DNA from: an uncultured Candidatus Poseidoniales archaeon | GTDB taxonomy: Archaea > Thermoplasmatota > Poseidoniia > Poseidoniales > Thalassarchaeaceae | Length of the DNA: 35,216 nt | NCBI GenBank assembly: GCA_964342715.1 | Contig: CAYFGD010000003.1 | Coordinates: forward strand, 1 to 35,216 | Reading direction: 5' to 3' | Part shown: positions 23,391 to 31,130 of the stretch, piece by piece | How the letters are laid out: each line of letters opens with the position of its first letter | Position numbering within the stretch: position 1 is the first letter of the stretch | The notes under the pieces: model-generated | Told to the model about the DNA's origin: nothing | Seen by the model: the letters and a program-made list of their open reading frames with translations, nothing else | Database searches by the model: none | Made by a program: the position numbers and the translations under genes

Positions 23391-25442
23391 ATGGACGGAG
23401 AACAACTAGGAATGTATGGAATGATGGCAGGGGTTTTCGGCCTTGTCGTCGCATTCATGCTCTATAGAAAGGTAGACTCGATTGAGATTGAGAACAAGAC
23501 TGTGGCAAAAATCACTGAGCGCATCCAGGACGGGGCTATGGCCTTCATGATGGCTGAATACAGGATGTTGTCCGTATTCATTGCCGTCGTTGCAGCTCTG
23601 CTGTTTGTTGGCGGGAACTACAATGACGACCTAGGCATGGAGACCACGATTGCTTTCGTCATTGGTGCGCTCTGCAGTGGTGCTGCGGGATTTAGCGGCA
23701 TGCGCTCAGCAACTAGCGCGAACGGGAGGACTGCACAGGCTGCAGCTAGCGGAGGCCAGGCGGATGCACTTACCACATCATACAACGGGGGGGCAGTAAT
23801 GGGCCTTGCAGTCGGAGGGTTGGGGCTCTTCGGAATATCAATGATGTACTACTTTACAGAAACTGAATTCCTCTCTGTAAGCAACATAGCAGGATTCGGG
23901 ATGGGTGCATCTTCCATCGCGCTCTTCGCCCGTGTTGGTGGTGGAATATACACCAAGGCTGCTGATGTTGGGGCAGATCTTGTGGGCAAGGTCGAAGCAG
24001 GCATTCCAGAGGACGATCCTCGAAATCCAGGCGTCATCGCTGACAACGTCGGTGACAACGTCGGTGACGTGGCTGGAATGGGGGCCGACATCTTCGAGTC
24101 CTTTGTCGGCTCAATAATCGCAGCAATGGTGATTGCTGCAGCTAGCAGTGAGTTGGGGGATGAGTACCTGAAGATTCCAATCGCTCTTGCCATAATTGGA
24201 TACCTAGCGTCTATTATCGGAGTCTTCTCGATTTCAGCAATGAAAAACATGGATGCTGGTGCGGCTCTCAGGAACACCACCTTCATCGGCGCGGGCCTGT
24301 TCATCGGGGGAGGCTATCTCGCCCTGGGGGAGCTAGGCCTCGATCAGACGGTGGTTTGGGCGGTTGCTATTGGAAGCATGGTAGGAATACTGATCGGACT
24401 TGTTACCGAATATTACACGGGAATAGAGCCTGTATTTGGTTTCCAAGTAAAGGCGATTCCCTACATTGGGGAGGCTTCCAAGACCGGTAGTGCAACTAAT
24501 GCCATAGCAGGCCTTGCTGTTGGTATGGAGTCTGTACTGGTTCCCGTAATTCTAATGGCAGCCGGAATTTATGGTGCGAATGACGTGATGGGCGGCGGAG
24601 ATGCCGGACTTTACGGAATCGCAATGGCAGCAATGGGAATGCTGGGAACCGTTGGAGTTACCATGACTGTTGATGCCTACGGGCCCGTGGCTGACAACGC
24701 TGGAGGCATAGCTGAGATGTCCGGTCTCGGGAAAGATGTGCGTGACATCACCGATGGGCTCGACTCCATTGGAAACACAACTGCCGCCATCGGGAAGGGT
24801 TTCGCAATAGGTAGTGCCGCTCTTACAGCTCTGGCCCTATTCGCTGCCTACAAGACGAGTGCAGGTTTGGATGCAGCATCGCTTTCGCTTACCAATCCAG
24901 AGGTGGTCATAGGTCTACTAATTGGAGGGGCCCTTCCTTTCGTGGTAGCGGCCATGACAATGAAGTCCGTTGGACGAGCTGCTGAAGACATGATTACTGA
25001 GATTCGCAGACAATTCAGGGAGATTGATGGGCTCCTTGAGGGTCGAGAAGGAGTCGAGCCGGACAGCGCCACATGCGTTGACATATCGACTCAGGCCGCT
25101 CTTAGGGAGATGGTGATGCCAGGACTTGTGGCAATCTCTAGCCCCGTGATCATTGGCAAGGCCCTCGGTCCTGCTGCCCTGGGTGGGACCCTAGCTGGAG
25201 CTACTGCAGCGGGTGTTCTCATGGCTCTATTCATGGCTAATGCGGGAGGAGCCTGGGACAACGCGAAGAAGGCCATCGAGCAAGGTGAGATATCGGGTGC
25301 TGAGAAGGGCGATGAAGCGCATTCTGCAGCAGTTGTAGGCGATACCATAGGGGATCCTTTCAAGGATACGAGCGGGCCATCCCTGAACATCCTGATCAAG
25401 TTGATGTCAATAGTCTCAGTTGTTATCGCTGGATTACTCTGA
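23391..25442 (+). CDS. hppA: Membrane-bound K+-dependent, probably Na+-translocating pyrophosphatase
   Basis: [69 protein letters not shown], about 16 TM helices. Confidence 0.97.
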
Positions 25443-26459: not shown

Positions 26460-27059
26460 ATGAGTCATGGGACTCTGGTAATGATGCATGGCATGACTGG
26501 AACCGCTGAAATGATGAAGCCGCTTGCAGAAAGCCTAGTTCCTAAGGGGTGGTCAGTAATGTGCCCCCAGGCGACAATAAAGCACCCTGCTAGTGGAGGT
26601 TTTGCATGGTGGCTGAGGGCCGATGACCCAGCCCTTCCCCTTGACGAGGTTTCCCAGGCTCAAGTTGATGAGTCGCTAATGCACGTTCGGGAGTCGCTCC
26701 CAGATGAGCCGGTGATAGTTGGAGGGTTTTCCCAGGGAGGGGCTATCGCATCGGCCCTAATGGGGACTGATTCAAGTGACAATATCGTTGGATTGGTCCT
26801 TATTGGAACCAAGACTGTTCGTGACGAATCACTCAGGGGCTCTCTTCCTTTCCTAAGGCCTCGTCCCATAGTGTGGATGCACGGGACCGGTGACCACCTT
26901 GTTCCGATCGAGCTAGCCAGAGAGCATGCTGACATCTTCGAGGATGCAGGATGGCCAATTACTAGGCTGGAGCATGAGAAGGGGCACATGGTGAATCTGA
27001 ATCAGTTAGATGAACTGAGGAATGCCATTCAAGATATGGCAGAAAACGCTCATAGATAG
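26460..27059 (+). CDS. Alpha/beta hydrolase, phospholipase/carboxylesterase family
   Basis: MMHG, GFAWW, nucleophile elbow GFSQG, HGTGDHLVP, KGH. Confidence 0.9.
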   Translation: MSHGTLVMMHGMTGTAEMMKPLAESLVPKGWSVMCPQATIKHPASGGFAWWLRADDPALPLDEVSQAQVDESLMHVRESLPDEPVIVGGFSQGGAIASALMGTDSSDNIVGLVLIGTKTVRDESLRGSLPFLRPRPIVWMHGTGDHLVPIELAREHADIFEDAGWPITRLEHEKGHMVNLNQLDELRNAIQDMAENAHR

Positions 27060-27316
27060 TCCATCAGGTGGTCGGACCCGCCTACAAAGATTGGGTCTTC
27101 ACCTCTAGTGTCGAAAACAACTGGTACGGTACGATGCCCTGTCTCCATGACGAGTTCCCTCCTCATTCCCTCGTAATGGTCAAGATTGACCTCGACATAG
27201 GTTAGGCCGTTGGCTTCCAATGTCCTGGATGCCCTGACGCAGTACGGACATATCGTCTGGCTGAAGAAAACGAAGTCCGTATCGGCGGACGTTAGATGAT
27301 CAAGAAACGACGCCAT
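27050..27316 (-). CDS. Glutaredoxin
   Basis: CPYC active site, TVP and GGSD glutaredoxin motifs. The ATG at 27316 lies within the last codons of the upstream S8-MFS gene. Confidence 0.9.
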   Translation of the reverse strand: MASFLDHLTSADTDFVFFSQTICPYCVRASRTLEANGLTYVEVNLDHYEGMRRELVMETGHRTVPVVFDTRGEDPIFVGGSDHLMDYL

Positions 27317-30300
27317 CCCTTCCCACACTCTCATTTTCTTCCTCCCACCAACCATCTGGAGTCTCGCCGAGATCGCCATCCGGCTCATCGTCGCCGCCTA
27401 AACGTCCCTCGAGGACACGGTCGCATTCGTCCGGATCGATGAAGACTAGAATCACTACGGTGAATAGGGTCAATGCCGCTCCCAAGTAAAGTGCTGAGAT
27501 GTAGTCAAAAATCTCAACCATTCTGCCGGTGAATTGGTATGCAATTACTGCGGAGAGATTGAACATCGACATATATGCTGTGAACTGGGTTCCTCCTGCC
27601 TTGCTGTAAGTGAGTCTCATCGAAACCGAGATGATACAAATCCATGCAAGGCCACTAATTATGGCCCTTAAACAAAGATAAACGGTCATTATTCCGGTAT
27701 TGGTCCAATAAGGCTCAAGCATTGCGAGGCCAGCATTCCCAAGAGCAAGTAGAGTGAATCCTACCATTGCAACTTCCCTTACTCCAAACCTATCGCCCAG
27801 GAAACCGCCCAGTATCTGCCCCGCCATAAGGAAGAGAATCACAATTCCTCCCATGATTCCGTTGTACTTCGTCTGTGTCCATCCTGCCTCATTGATGAAG
27901 ATATCAACCACTATCGGATCGACGAAGACGTACATCTCAGAAAGGAGGCAGAGGAATATGAGCAAGAAAGAGGACCTGAGAGAGAACCCCTTGACTATAT
28001 TGTAGGCAGGAACTGCAAGTCCAGACCTAGCCTGACCGCCCAGGGGGTTCGATATACGGAAGTCGGAAACGGCTGGCAAAAGGAATTTTCCAATCGCTAT
28101 TCCCGACATTGATAGCAAGAAGGCGTACCATCCCACTTTCTTTAGTGGTGAGGCTACGGTGTCGAATGAGTCCACGCCCGAAACGAGGTAGATTATTCCC
28201 AATGCGCCTCCAATAAGCATCACTACTATGCTTGCCCATAGGAGTGCAGCGATACCCTGTATCTGGTCCCCATACAGGTTTCCGGAGACCCAGCTGGCGA
28301 CTCTGAAATCATCTTCGTGATCATCTTCCCACGGGAGAGCCTCTTCGGCTTCCCACAGATTCTCCTGGGAGGCGTCAGAGTCGTCATAATTATCTTGCCC
28401 GGGAGAGGACCTCTGCCATGGGAACAAGCGATCACTAGGCCTCTCTCTAAGGAAGAGGGGTAGACACATTATCAGGGCCAGAAGAGGGAGTTGGACCATA
28501 ATTGCGGCTTTAATGCCAAAGTCCAATACTAGCATTCCGACCACTGCTCCTCCAATTATTATCCCACCCCTCTTTGCTGCGAACATGAAGCCGTTAGCCT
28601 TCGCAACCTCGTCGGGCTGGAGAACGTCGACTGCCAAGGCGTCCACGCTCACATCTTGTAGTGACGAGAACAGGTTGTGTACGAATAACATCAGGGTCAC
28701 GAGTTCTATTGATGCATTCAGATCGGGTACGAAAAGTAATGCACCCAAAGTAACAATCATTCCAGTCTGAGCAAAGAGGATCCAAGGCCTCCTTAGTCCG
28801 TAAGAAGGGAACTGGACTGCATCGACCACTGGCCCCCAAATGAACTTGAAAGTCCAAGGTAGTGCTATGGTTGCAAATAGGGCAGCTATCTGCTCCGGAG
28901 ACGCTCCGTTAGCAACCAGGAAGGCGACGAATGTCACCGAGGTGAATCCTGCAGGCAGGCCCTGGGCAGTGTAGAGTATGGAGAGAGAGACGTACCTTCT
29001 GAATTGGTTCTCAACCAGAGACTTGCCATCGTTCCAGGAATCCCTAGCTGAGTTCCACCTGCCTGGAATTAGACGGGGGTCAATTGCTGAACCGACTTTA
29101 CTTGCAATGGTGTAGATGCCCATATGTTCCGATACGACGAGTTCGTCTTTACCTCTGATCTTTGAAATCCAACGCTCCCTTACCGAAACGAAGCCGATAA
29201 GTGCAACTGAAGCTATGAATGGAATCCAGAATATTGAGCTGCTCAATTTTGTTAATTGCCCCGAGGAACTACCCGAGGCCTCTCCATCGATGAGTATGAC
29301 TCTTCTGGAATCAATGGGGGAGATACTGTTCTCTGAAGCGACTAGGCGTGCGTAAATTGTGGAGTTGCCAGACTTTTCATGCGGATCTAGCTTGACTCTC
29401 CACTGTCCCCAGTCGCCGGAAATGTCTGCTGCCCCCTTCCACTCGCCACCTCCAACGCGAACCTGCACTAGGCCCATTCCCGGTGCCACTCCTGATGCAG
29501 TTCCTGAGATATACGACTCGTTTCCTATATGCTGCAGAGTTTCTACATACATGCTAACATTGAGTGATCTGTCGATGCTGCCTGCTGCCTCGACAAACGC
29601 TAGTGGGTCGGCCTGACCGAACCCGAACTCGTTGTCCGGGCGAGTCTCCAAGATGCTGCAGTCATTGAATCCAGGGTCATCCAGCAACTGGAGATCCCTC
29701 TCGATGGAGTGTGCAGAGATGATGTCCTTGAACTCAGAGGGGGTGATGTCAGGATTGGCCTCGACCATCAGGGCGGCTATGCCTGCCATCAAGGGGGTAG
29801 CCATGCTAGTTCCCGACTTGCTGGTATATCCATCGCTAGTCGCAGCGTCTGGAGCCATGATGCTGGAGCCTATGGTAGCGACGTCTGGCTTGACCCTGCC
29901 ATCTGATGTGTACCCTCGACTGCTGTAAATAGCTAGGGCGAGATCCTTGTCCAAGCTCGCCACTGTTACTGGAAGATTTGCATCGCCTGGACTGTCTATC
30001 GTGTTACATCCGGCAAATGTTGCACCTCCGAACTCATTACCTGCTGACAGTGTGGTGATTATTCCAGCCTCCACCACGGCATCCATCTGTCTGCTCCAAG
30101 CTGAGCTTCCGTCGTTGTCGAAGTGTATCTCCAACTGCTGCTCGCCAAGAGATGAAGTGACTATGTCGATGCCATACTTGTCCTTGTTATCTATGGCCCA
30201 CTGGGCCCCTTGAATGACGTCCTCTATGTCCCCATCACAACATGCTAACAAATTGATCAGGAATGCTCCGGGAGCGGCTCCCACATATCTGAGGCCTGTG

Positions 30301-31130
30301 GTTGGTTCTGTCTGCCCTCCCCCTGTCCCAGCGGCTATCCCTGCCACGTGACTCCCATGAGTTCCTGAGTCGTAAGATGTGGAAGGGTCCTGCTCTGAAT
30401 CTGTGAAAACGGAATCGAAGAATGCAATAATCTTGGGATCACAATCAATCGGGATTGGATTGGGATTGGTTGGGTCCGGATCTGGCTGATCGCATCCCAT
30501 AGTGAATGGCTCATCATCCATGTCGTTGAGGCCCTCGTGATCCCCCCTAACCCCTGTATCGAGGATAGCAATGACTGAACCCGTGCCGTCGAACCCGAAG
30601 TCGTTCCACACCTGGTCAACTCCCATGTTTGGAGCAGCCTCGTGCATGTTCGCCTCTGCAAGACCGAGGTCCTCGATCATGACCACTCCTGGAAGGGAAA
30701 GTATGCCATTACCAGAAAGTATCGAGGCGAAGGGCGCTGTTGCTATTACGGCGTCGAGGTATTTCGGCCTGAAGGTGGTCGTCACCCCCAGTTCCTCGAG
30801 AGCTGAAACGTCTGCATCAGTTGGGTGGTGATTGTAGTCAACGAAGATCCTGGCGCTCCCCTCTGGGGCCCTCCTCCACCATTCTTGCTGAACCTGTTCT
30901 GGTTGTTGCAATAACCACTCAAGTCGGTCGTCGATTGAATCTGAGTCCTTGTCCCTGCTCCAGTGTAGCCACCACTCAGCGTGCAATTCGGACTCTGCGC
31001 TAGGAGCCCATTTACCATCCGCATCCAATCCTCCCTTTCCATGCTCGACTGGTGAAATCGATGATGAGGCAAGTGGGATGATGAATAGCAGCACCAGAGC
31101 TGATGCTATCGCTGACGAACGCCCCACCAT
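27300..31130 (-). CDS. Fusion protein: secreted subtilisin-like S8 serine protease + AmpG-family MFS transporter
   Basis: Signal peptide and propeptide, S8 triad ILDTG (D191), HGSHVAG (H258), GTSMATP (S442), oxyanion AGN (N365). Then an Ig-like domain and a TM helix (~633-650). From ~aa 712, AmpG-like motifs LYTAQGLP, LPWTFKFIWGPVVD, RRPWIL, QDVSVDALA, GGFLGDRFG, GTQFTAYMS. Confidence 0.9.
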   Translation of the reverse strand: MVGRSSAIASALVLLFIIPLASSSISPVEHGKGGLDADGKWAPSAESELHAEWWLHWSRDKDSDSIDDRLEWLLQQPEQVQQEWWRRAPEGSARIFVDYNHHPTDADVSALEELGVTTTFRPKYLDAVIATAPFASILSGNGILSLPGVVMIEDLGLAEANMHEAAPNMGVDQVWNDFGFDGTGSVIAILDTGVRGDHEGLNDMDDEPFTMGCDQPDPDPTNPNPIPIDCDPKIIAFFDSVFTDSEQDPSTSYDSGTHGSHVAGIAAGTGGGQTEPTTGLRYVGAAPGAFLINLLACCDGDIEDVIQGAQWAIDNKDKYGIDIVTSSLGEQQLEIHFDNDGSSAWSRQMDAVVEAGIITTLSAGNEFGGATFAGCNTIDSPGDANLPVTVASLDKDLALAIYSSRGYTSDGRVKPDVATIGSSIMAPDAATSDGYTSKSGTSMATPLMAGIAALMVEANPDITPSEFKDIISAHSIERDLQLLDDPGFNDCSILETRPDNEFGFGQADPLAFVEAAGSIDRSLNVSMYVETLQHIGNESYISGTASGVAPGMGLVQVRVGGGEWKGAADISGDWGQWRVKLDPHEKSGNSTIYARLVASENSISPIDSRRVILIDGEASGSSSGQLTKLSSSIFWIPFIASVALIGFVSVRERWISKIRGKDELVVSEHMGIYTIASKVGSAIDPRLIPGRWNSARDSWNDGKSLVENQFRRYVSLSILYTAQGLPAGFTSVTFVAFLVANGASPEQIAALFATIALPWTFKFIWGPVVDAVQFPSYGLRRPWILFAQTGMIVTLGALLFVPDLNASIELVTLMLFVHNLFSSLQDVSVDALAVDVLQPDEVAKANGFMFAAKRGGIIIGGAVVGMLVLDFGIKAAIMVQLPLLALIMCLPLFLRERPSDRLFPWQRSSPGQDNYDDSDASQENLWEAEEALPWEDDHEDDFRVASWVSGNLYGDQIQGIAALLWASIVVMLIGGALGIIYLVSGVDSFDTVASPLKKVGWYAFLLSMSGIAIGKFLLPAVSDFRISNPLGGQARSGLAVPAYNIVKGFSLRSSFLLIFLCLLSEMYVFVDPIVVDIFINEAGWTQTKYNGIMGGIVILFLMAGQILGGFLGDRFGVREVAMVGFTLLALGNAGLAMLEPYWTNTGIMTVYLCLRAIISGLAWICIISVSMRLTYSKAGGTQFTAYMSMFNLSAVIAYQFTGRMVEIFDYISALYLGAALTLFTVVILVFIDPDECDRVLEGRLGGDDEPDGDLGETPDGWWEEENESVGRDGVVS

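Follow-up and report, generated by a model that had tools for sequence, protein, structure and literature searches.

The window analysed here, a stretch of 35,216 nucleotides from an uncultured Candidatus Poseidoniales archaeon of the Thalassarchaeaceae (contig CAYFGD010000003.1 of assembly GCA_964342715.1), contains on its reverse strand, at 27300..31130, a single gene in which a subtilisin-type protease (Peptidase_S8) is joined through one extra transmembrane helix (TM0) to an AmpG-like transporter of the major facilitator superfamily (MFS). The fusion is real, old and selected, as judged from its homologues, its presence in a second order, its substitution rates and the trees of its two halves; an earlier note on this DNA, made from the letters alone, had argued against an accidental join, and in this it was right. 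From its sequence, the protein may work as a single-chain surface protease and importer, a "digest-and-import" system, a proposal that we regard as about evenly balanced between right and wrong. The coupling of the two activities is supported because an unrelated peptidase of family M28 is likewise joined by a homologous TM0 to a sister MFS protein, and because 9 of the 10 AmpG proton-symporter residues checked are kept.

Gene structure and topology

The open reading frame (ORF) comprises 1276 codons and a stop in a single frame with zero internal stops, and the earlier reading of one uninterrupted frame is borne out by the ORF list and the translation. Its parts, with the evidence for each, are listed below; scores of the predicted local distance difference test (pLDDT) refer to the AlphaFold2 model described after the list, and 3afg and 8zgz are Protein Data Bank (PDB) entries.

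27300..31130 (-): whole ORF, S8 protease, TM0 and AmpG-like MFS; open frame, full-length homologues
31056..31130 (-): putative Sec-type signal peptide, residues 1-25 (MVGRSS..LASSSI); hydropathy peak at 7-25, translation
30588..31055 (-): putative N-terminal propeptide region, residues 26-181, including an acidic motif at 60-68; pLDDT 84-94, beta-alpha-beta fold, fold match to 3afg
29616..30587 (-): Peptidase_S8 catalytic domain, residues 182-505; Pfam E 4.5e-43, residues checked
30558-30560 (-): D191
30357-30359 (-): H258
30036-30038 (-): N365
29805-29807 (-): S442
29292..29561 (-): beta-sandwich, residues 524-613; six strands in the model, 3afg match over 606 columns
29238..29291 (-): Ser/Gly-rich stalk, residues 614-631, IDGEASGSSSGQLTKLSS; translation, low pLDDT
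29178..29237 (-): extra helix TM0, residues 632-651, SIFWIPFIASVALIGFVSVR, then ERWISKIRGK; hydropathy 2.16, helix in the model
29007..29177 (-): variable cytoplasmic linker, residues 652-708 (about 57); least conserved part of the chain, within the segment of highest substitution ratio (0.16-0.24, see below)
28452..29006 (-): MFS N-half, TM1-6, residues 709-893; Pfam, NCBIfam, model, AmpG alignment
28782-28847 (-): AmpG-type extended motif A, K762..W783; alignment to Escherichia coli AmpG
within the MFS N-half (-): TM4 acid pair D826/D830; alignment to E. coli AmpG
28038..28451 (-): central acidic loop and two extra helices (about 959-984 and 987-1016), residues 894-1031; hydropathy, model, poorly conserved
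27438..28037 (-): MFS C-half, TM7-12, residues 1032-1231; NCBIfam, hydropathy, model, fold match to AmpG 8zgz (template modelling score, TM-score, 0.70 on target)
27303..27437 (-): acidic C-terminal tail, residues 1232-1276; translation

The hydropathy profile shows an N-terminal segment at residues 7-25, an isolated helix at 632-650 and a dense run of helices from 722 to 1231, and the 14 residues following the isolated helix contain four Lys or Arg. With the protease outside and TM0 crossing from outside to inside, the MFS starts from the cytoplasm, so that the topology is coherent; the self-consistency that had been claimed for the signal peptide, for TM0 followed by basic residues and for the cytoplasmic beginning of the MFS is seen in both the hydropathy profile and the model. 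The AlphaFold2 model covers residues 36-1235 and was built from a 63-row alignment, with a mean pLDDT of 75.8 and a predicted template modelling score (pTM) of 0.52. Confidence is 84-94 in the putative propeptide and mostly 85-95 in the MFS, whereas stalk, linker and central loop score low. In the model the beta-sandwich lies at about 524-613, and TM0 (632-651) leads into short linker helices.

Authenticity of the fusion

A homologue search among 5.8 billion proteins listed 120 matches of 65-94% identity. Among the matches listed, S8 (PF00082) and MFS (PF07690), the architecture for which a search had been proposed at the outset, lie in one chain in 120 of 120. Their lengths are also uniform, 118 of the 120 falling between 1255 and 1317 residues, with the others at 1069 and 1184. 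The listed homologues come from ENA, NCBI, JGI, Logan, Tara, MGnify and metaclust, on contigs of up to 317 kb, under record names that include "MAG ... Euryarchaeota archaeon" and "Candidatus Thalassarchaeaceae archaeon"; one bears the JGI automatic name "subtilisin family serine protease/MFS family permease". Among the fused loci that we fetched, 32 of 32 have intact frames, of 1236-1340 codons, and the stretch between TM0 and the MFS ranges from 19 to 87 residues across them with the frame always maintained.

Ratios of nonsynonymous to synonymous substitution (dN/dS) were calculated by the Nei-Gojobori method against the three closest orthologues, more distant pairs being saturated at synonymous sites. 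The ratio is about 0.03 for the S8 part and 0.045-0.055 for the MFS, and rises to 0.16-0.24 in the stalk, TM0 and linker. Both halves are under strong purifying selection.

The junction itself is tiled by public Logan contigs, which are assembled sequence rather than raw reads, with no single listed piece spanning the whole gene. The X4 and X6 contigs at 28989-29231 and 29207-29649 are identical to the window. One X9 contig, from a separate study, covers 28855-29344 and thus the start of the MFS, the linker, TM0 and the end of the beta-sandwich; it differs from the window by 27 substitutions and three one-base insertions, and since the insertions total +3 nucleotides the frame is kept. The mapping across the junction suggested in the earlier note was therefore achieved in one respect, in that contigs span the join in frame, and not in another, these being short contigs and not reads. 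A misassembly, or a missed stop or frameshift joining two genes, is next to impossible and we reject it, as the same fusion occurs in many independent assemblies, its length varies in frame, and purifying selection extends across the join.

The protease half

Pfam recognizes Peptidase_S8 over residues 182-505 with 148 bits against a cut-off of 21.8. The catalytic residues D191, H258 and S442, in the order Asp-His-Ser, and the oxyanion residue N365 are intact at exactly the positions first read from the translation, and 32 of 32 fused homologues share this tetrad, as do all 10 rows of stand-alone S8 proteins. The other element read there, a "DKDSDSID" motif, is present from residue 60 and is conserved as a pattern, D-K-[DN]-x-[DN]-x-[LI]-D-D, among the 32 fused homologues. 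It occupies residues 60-68 (nucleotides 30927-30953, reverse strand), at the start of the propeptide region. D60 and D68 are found in 32 of 32 and D67 in 31 of 32, while position 62 is Asp in 28 and Asn in 4, and position 64 is Asp in 12 and Asn in 20. Judged by its acidic pattern, this segment looks like a candidate calcium-binding loop.

In a sequence search of solved structures, the best match to the protease half is Tk-SP of Thermococcus kodakarensis (PDB 3afg, 9ues; E 1.6e-38), and a Foldseek search of the PDB with the model matched its N-terminal half to ProN-Tk-SP (3afg) with E 1.5e-15 over 606 columns, a span long enough to include the putative propeptide, the S8 domain and the beta-sandwich. 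None of the Pfam propeptide families matched the region before the catalytic domain; the fold match to ProN-Tk-SP spans it, and the model is confident there. Tk-SP, the closest solved relative of this half in both sequence and fold, is a soluble secreted enzyme, whereas the C-terminus of the beta-sandwich here continues into the stalk, the membrane helix and the transporter. The domain had been described as Ig-like (immunoglobulin-like): a six-strand beta-sandwich at about 524-613 is indeed present in the model, but its identity as an Ig domain was not established.

The transporter half

Pfam MFS_1 matches from residue 717 with 87.8 bits against a cut-off of 33.4, and the matches to MFS_1, BT1 and the acetyl-CoA transporter family (Acatn) all fall in the stretch that starts at residue 716. 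The best NCBIfam model is that of the AmpG family (TIGR00901; residues 711-1229, E 4.4e-37), with 127.7 bits against a curated cut-off of 350, and the runner-up is that of the RhtX/FptX siderophore importers. NCBIfam equivalog models for muropeptide transporters reach 67 and 51 bits against cut-offs of 656 and 756. Because the curated TIGR00901 cut-off is not reached, we treat the protein as an AmpG-like relative and not as a curated AmpG; the earlier assignment to the AmpG family survives as the best available model and falls short at the threshold. No ABC transporter family in Pfam or NCBIfam matched the fusion protein.

Sequence and fold agree on the nearest relative. Among solved structures AmpG is the best sequence match to the MFS half (E 2.5e-11), followed by SLC33A1 (about 1e-8), and by Foldseek AmpG 8zgz matches with a TM-score of 0.70 on target and a root-mean-square deviation of 3.9, SLC33A1 and PepTSt ranking lower. 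AmpG, of the PAT family of the MFS (PDB 9c3f, 9j9z, 8zgz, 8zbb), is thus the closest solved relative of the transporter half. The transporter had been called a complete MFS, and two six-helix bundles are present, although the count needs correction: by hydropathy and by the model there are 14 helices, arranged 6 + 2 + 6, with the extra pair (about 959-1016) between TM6 and TM7. In AmpG the extra pair (TM13/14) is instead terminal, following TM12, a position inferred from the residue ranges in PMC11568325 (in part; sources so marked are cited from the accessible portions of their text). Past the last helix of our protein (about 1213-1231) there is only the acidic tail, and AmpG-type TM13/14 are absent. 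Conversely, the extra N-terminal helix and the ectodomain are features of our protein and not of AmpG. Taken separately, the two halves are ordinary members of the S8 and MFS families, the latter AmpG-like, below the curated AmpG threshold and without the AmpG C-terminal helix pair.

We aligned the MFS to E. coli AmpG and took the roles of residues from the cryo-electron microscopy study of that protein (PMC11568325, in part). AmpG K62, W65, P67, D70 and R79 correspond to K762, W765, P767, D770 and R780, and AmpG R80, W83, D125 and D129 to R781, W783, D826 and D830; altogether 9 of the 10 residues checked, from the extended motif A (including P67) and the TM4 cluster, are kept. Conservation among the 32 fused homologues is complete for K762, P767, D770, R780, R781, W783, D826 and D830, the set including the central Asp (D770) and the Arg pair (R780/R781) of motif A between TM2 and TM3, and W765 is found in 31. 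The nine residues are kept in 19-21 of 21 other MFS rows. The host is an archaeon not known to have murein, so muropeptide recycling is presumably not the role of this protein. AmpG is described as an importing proton symporter with a peptide-bearing solute (PMC11568325, in part).

A transporter joined to a protease might also run the other way, the MFS exporting a peptide or other precursor that the tethered S8 domain then matures outside, an arrangement like that of the Dictyostelium Tag protease/ABC proteins or of lantibiotic systems with their extracellular leader peptidases. The direction of an MFS protein cannot be read from its sequence, and the serine protease/ABC fusions of the Dictyostelium Tag type do combine signal processing with export (PMC3743828, in part). 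We consider this very improbable here, given that there are no precursor or biosynthetic genes nearby, that the nearest solved relative by sequence and by fold is the importer AmpG, with PepTSt also matching by fold, and that an M28 peptidase on a sister scaffold would fit nutrition better than signal maturation.

Distribution and history of the fusion

Both halves occur in one frame of at least 1233 residues in 41 of 201 genomes of the order, by a count of listed rows, so that relatives do not always encode two separate genes. By genus (families and genera are given by our codes, f and g), the fused genomes number 12 in g1, which includes the genome of the window, 4 in g4, 5 in g5, 5 in g6, 9 in g8, 3 in g12 and 3 in g13; only part of the genomes of g5 and g12 are fused. 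We also inspected the best 150 matches among the 50%-identity clusters of a library of 1.84 billion proteins, and found two that carry both halves, P0122 (1289 residues) and P0124 (1176 residues, 48% identity), the latter from family f4, in another order of the same class. In that family, genus g27 has the fusion in 5 of 5 genomes, in frames of 1168-1210 residues, and genus g25 has the S8 part by itself in 4 of 4. At a threshold of 1e-80, no genome of the remaining families in a 401-genome sample of the phylum gave a match, f3 among them with 0 of 58.

Separate phylogenies of the two halves, another step suggested at the start, were run as quick maximum-likelihood trees (LG+G4, with support from the Shimodaira-Hasegawa-like approximate likelihood ratio test, SH-aLRT). 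The S8 and MFS trees agree in placing the f4 forms as the sister group of the f1 forms as a whole (support 100 and 99), from which it follows that the fusion predates that split or moved as a whole. Lineages with the split arrangement have the S8 protein alone together with an MFS protein of 50-54% identity that bears, in front of a TM0 homologous to that of the fusion, an N-terminal domain of about 235 residues that we call X. In the five g5 genomes compared, the two split genes share a contig at a distance of 12-14 kb; in three g12 genomes they lie on different contigs. In the MFS tree the X-MFS proteins form one clade nested inside the S8-MFS forms, and in the S8 tree the stand-alone forms make up two clades nested inside the fused forms. 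Approximately unbiased (AU) tests, with groups named after the trees had been inspected and trees from quick searches, reject a single clade in each of three cases: fused MFS (p 2e-53), stand-alone S8 (p 3.6e-5) and fused S8 (p 1.8e-5). Given the outgroups chosen, the trees are most simply read as showing an ancestral fused state in the clade, which gave way on at least two occasions to S8 alone plus X-MFS.

Both gene trees show the genus codes scattered, with local disagreement between the halves (loci L030, L024, L025, L033 and L028). These features point to recombination or transfer of the gene among lineages and genera, or else to binning errors. Five loci (L029, L030, L031, L038 and L039) have a different, "type B" junction, with another transmembrane helix (for example NILIIGV...LYNRE) and a linker of about 19 residues, which could be a second fusion event or a remodelled junction. 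A derivation of the type B helix from the anchor of the stand-alone S8 was considered; the two are only weakly similar (z 1-4.7), and a second, independent fusion is therefore not established.

A wider family of ectodomain-transporter proteins

In these archaea the gene is one of a larger group that encodes "ectodomain-TM0-MFS" proteins. AmpG-type permeases had been described as normally stand-alone, and this does not hold in the order, where the MFS relatives usually bear an N-terminal ectodomain. Their records carry only automatic names such as "MFS transporter" and "PAT family ... AmpG". P0129 (869 residues) consists of a Peptidase_M28 domain, a homologous TM0 and an MFS; P0133 has a plastocyanin/azurin copper-binding domain on the MFS, P0125 has the X domain, and P0126, P0130 and P0134 have N-terminal domains without a Pfam match. 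The MFS of the fusion is 46-54% identical to those of its M28-, X- and cupredoxin-bearing relatives. These Poseidoniales proteins (P0129, P0125 and P0133) resemble the fusion in a homologous TM0, the start of the linker and the MFS. A TM0 pattern, "F[FW]IPF...RE[RGD]W", is common to S8-MFS, X-MFS and M28-MFS proteins, and TM0 is conserved along with the MFS and not along with the ectodomain. These three relatives share with the S8 form the same clade of organisms and the same fused/split polymorphism, and differ in the ectodomain.

The M28 form occurs in both large families of the order, near-full-length in one frame in at least 8 of 201 genomes, and a further 6 genomes have partial matches in frames of 904-976 residues. 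Loci L018 (G155:C75), L019 (G132:C45) and L020 (G152:C158) are M28-TM0-MFS genes of 868-880 residues. Elsewhere M28 stands alone at 415-490 residues, fused and split forms coexisting as they do for S8. Among the 120 matches listed for the MFS of P0129, 43 carry M28, 36 a cupredoxin, and 41 no Pfam domain besides the MFS. The cupredoxin-MFS proteins (P0133 and P0320-P0384) are 628-688 residues long with the copper domain N-terminal, and some are named "Candidatus Poseidoniales archaeon"; it is only a thought that the role of the cupredoxin may relate to metal chelates, which the related RhtX/FptX importers carry. Three more distant MFS relatives, P0250, P0157 and P0258, have C-terminal domains: an MGH1-like glycoside hydrolase with a GH65 C-terminal domain and an F5/8 type C domain, a 3-keto-disaccharide hydrolase, and FG-GAP repeats.

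Domain X comprises about 200 residues with four invariant cysteines (C53, C86, C188 and C201). Its model is an all-beta jelly-roll (pLDDT 78, pTM 0.73), for which a fold search found generic jelly-rolls only (the cocaine esterase C-domain, BcsB and MAM; TM-score on query at most 0.43). No Pfam family matched, a protein atlas gave only unnamed Thermoplasmatota clusters (0.89-0.91), and a search of the window's own genome (79% complete) did not recover X. X-MFS genes are found at loci L014-L017 and L041-L048, stand-alone X genes at L062-L068, and the loci of family f3 are L069-L074. The stand-alone X proteins end in LPGFG..., a hydrophobic stretch and basic residues, a tail that we take to resemble a PGF-CTERM (archaeosortase) signal, no model having confirmed it.

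The variety of these ectodomains invites the explanation that TM0 and the MFS serve mainly as a scaffold to hold assorted domains at the cell surface, with protease and transporter acting independently and a transported substrate unrelated to proteolysis. The cupredoxin, Pfam-less and jelly-roll ectodomains suit it, as do the stand-alone S8 and X proteins with anchors of their own (in X, the PGF-CTERM-like tail) and the separation of the S8 part from the MFS at least twice. A transporter of 14 helices would, however, be a costly anchor in a genome of 1.2-1.5 Mb in which the stand-alone forms need a single helix; the MFS is moreover strongly constrained (dN/dS about 0.05) and keeps motif A and the acid pair, and two unrelated peptidases are found on the scaffold. 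We think this explanation unlikely, though it deserves to be taken seriously.

Processing, neighbourhood and expression

It might also be that one gene yields two products, through a post-translational cut near the stalk or TM0, made by the protease itself or by a sorting enzyme, so that the fusion would serve only co-expression and co-insertion. Both the Ser/Gly stalk and the linker are flexible and show little conservation, and the stand-alone X tails of relatives (LPGFG... and basic residues) look like an archaeosortase signal, so that processing of this kind may occur in the group. The window's own genome has a weak exosortase-like match (PF09721; G000:C64:1214-1396, locus L061, in a frame of 346 residues) of 18 bits against a cut-off of 25.7. 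TM0 of the fusion, on the other hand, has no PGF motif, and none of the NCBIfam sorting-signal models, searched at E up to 10, matched either TM0 or the tail of the stand-alone S8 protein P0123. Known sorting signals are C-terminal, which also counts against a cut in the middle of this chain, as does the conservation of TM0 with the MFS and not with the ectodomain. Two separate products from this gene therefore seem to us distinctly unlikely.

The surroundings of the gene offer no operon clue, and no precursor or biosynthetic genes were seen near it. A membrane H+-pyrophosphatase gene (23391-25442, forward strand, E 2e-243) lies 1.9 kb downstream of the stop codon of the fusion (27300) on the opposite strand; this family is reported to be highly transcribed in these archaea (PMC9723583, in part). 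When started at the first ATG, a glutaredoxin ORF (27050-27388, reverse strand) shares 89 nucleotides with the 3' end of the fusion gene. Its Pfam domain begins only at ORF residue 40, so the true start is probably later. None of the datasets listed as containing the sequence was an RNA dataset. One metatranscriptome contig of 167 nucleotides is identical to 30040-30199 of the window; it comes from the same sample as one of the DNA datasets containing the sequence, and DNA carry-over is possible.

Proposed function

In the digest-and-import proposal, the signal peptide would send the N-terminal half across the membrane, where the propeptide would assist folding of the S8 domain and then be cut off. 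Since the protease is held at its C-terminal side, maturation would leave it and the beta-sandwich still attached. An 18-residue Ser/Gly stalk would link them to TM0, which would cross the membrane from outside to inside and lead, through a cytoplasmic linker of about 57 residues, into the 14-helix MFS. The tethered endopeptidase could then cut protein, whether dissolved or bound to particles, within nanometres of where an AmpG-like symporter opens to the outside, and the released oligopeptides would be imported by proton-coupled symport before being lost to diffusion. As the TM0 and MFS scaffold appears to take other ectodomains in related archaea, the S8 form may be one exchangeable module among several.

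Several lines of evidence beyond the M28 parallel bear on this proposal. S8 and M28 are the extracellular peptidases reported for these archaea (PMC6864105, in part), and "subtilase" is reported to be highly transcribed in them (PMC9723583, in part). Classic peptide importers are rare in the order, which we count in favour of coupling: the Opp/Dpp-type binding protein (PF00496) occurs in 37 of 201 genomes, 3 of 13 in the genus of the window and 1 of 99 in family f3, and POT (PF00854) in 1 of 201. The peptide-uptake repertoire of these "protein-eating" archaea looks unusual. There is also a precedent for coupling cleavage with import in the AmpG family, in that the periplasmic domain of the Acinetobacter baumannii paralogue AmpG1 is reported to bind an extracytoplasmic hydrolase, the lytic transglycosylase Slt (PMC13507758, in part). 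There, the association is non-covalent, the hydrolase cleaves glycan and the setting is cell-wall recycling, whereas here the hydrolase is a protease in the same polypeptide.

A number of observations weigh against the proposal. Several lineages have split the fusion, so the covalent link is dispensable: a stand-alone anchored S8 protein of 663-726 residues with its own C-terminal helix is found in at least 14 f1 genomes, and X-MFS replaces the fused MFS in 13 genomes at full length and in three more partially. The cupredoxins (36 of 120), the Pfam-less domains (41 of 120) and the jelly-roll X found on sister transporters have no obvious role in making a substrate. SLC33A1, a relative of the transporter half, moves acetyl-CoA out of the cytosol, and membership of the family, as read from sequence, leaves both direction and substrate unfixed. 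At the position of AmpG K132, 32 of 32 fused homologues have Ala, and the alignment of the C-half to AmpG falls short of significance. With a pTM of 0.52 and patchy confidence in the S8 core, the placement of the protease over the transporter is not readable from the model. The neighbouring genes are housekeeping ones (the H+-pyrophosphatase, an alpha/beta hydrolase, the glutaredoxin, a GHMP kinase and riboflavin genes) and offer no hint of function. Finally, 3 of 5 good genomes, among them 2 of 2 from the genus of the window, contain OPT (PF03169), so other peptide routes exist; for the same reason we reject the idea that the fusion is the sole peptide importer.

Relation to known fusions

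Proteases and transporters are joined elsewhere in nature, as in the C39-peptidase ABC exporters. In TagA/B/C of Dictyostelium, a serine protease and a transporter likewise share one chain with the protease at the cell surface. These eukaryotic proteins contain an ABC exporter and process and export developmental signals (PMC3743828, in part), whereas here the transporter is an MFS protein and the proposed role is nutrition; homology between the two fusions is not expected. The earlier note knew of no characterized S8-MFS fusion, and our literature searches agree, having found no description of S8-MFS, M28-MFS, X-MFS or cupredoxin-MFS proteins, although the supplements of PMC11237513, PMC9723583 and PMC6864105 might list the gene. 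A survey of archaeal fusions (PMC11237513) does not mention S8 or MFS in its main text, nor do the words "MFS" or "fused" appear in PMC6864105. S8 and M28 are listed there and in PMC9723583 as surface peptidases and are not linked to a transporter in the accessible text of either.

Implications for the Poseidoniia

Marine Group II archaea are among the most abundant planktonic archaea, are uncultured and are thought to live on dissolved protein. The S8-MFS gene, like its M28 counterpart, is a concrete candidate for how the products of their peptidases are captured. Natural examples of an extracytoplasmic enzyme in covalent union with a secondary transporter are rare, and this one bears on how cells in dilute media keep what external digestion releases. 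As sister lineages differ in having the fused or the split form, they amount to a natural experiment on the importance of the covalent link.

More broadly, and as a tentative and rather doubtful suggestion, the Poseidoniia (Marine Groups II and III) might take up protein-derived matter mainly through a modular, one-chain platform of outside enzyme plus importer, rather than through Opp or POT systems, with ectodomains (S8 endopeptidase, M28 exopeptidase, a jelly-roll binding domain and a cupredoxin) exchanged by recombination at TM0 and the protease held over an outward-open cavity, passing what it releases directly to the transporter. If this is true, the platform would be a one-polypeptide equivalent of the "selfish" uptake known for polysaccharides.

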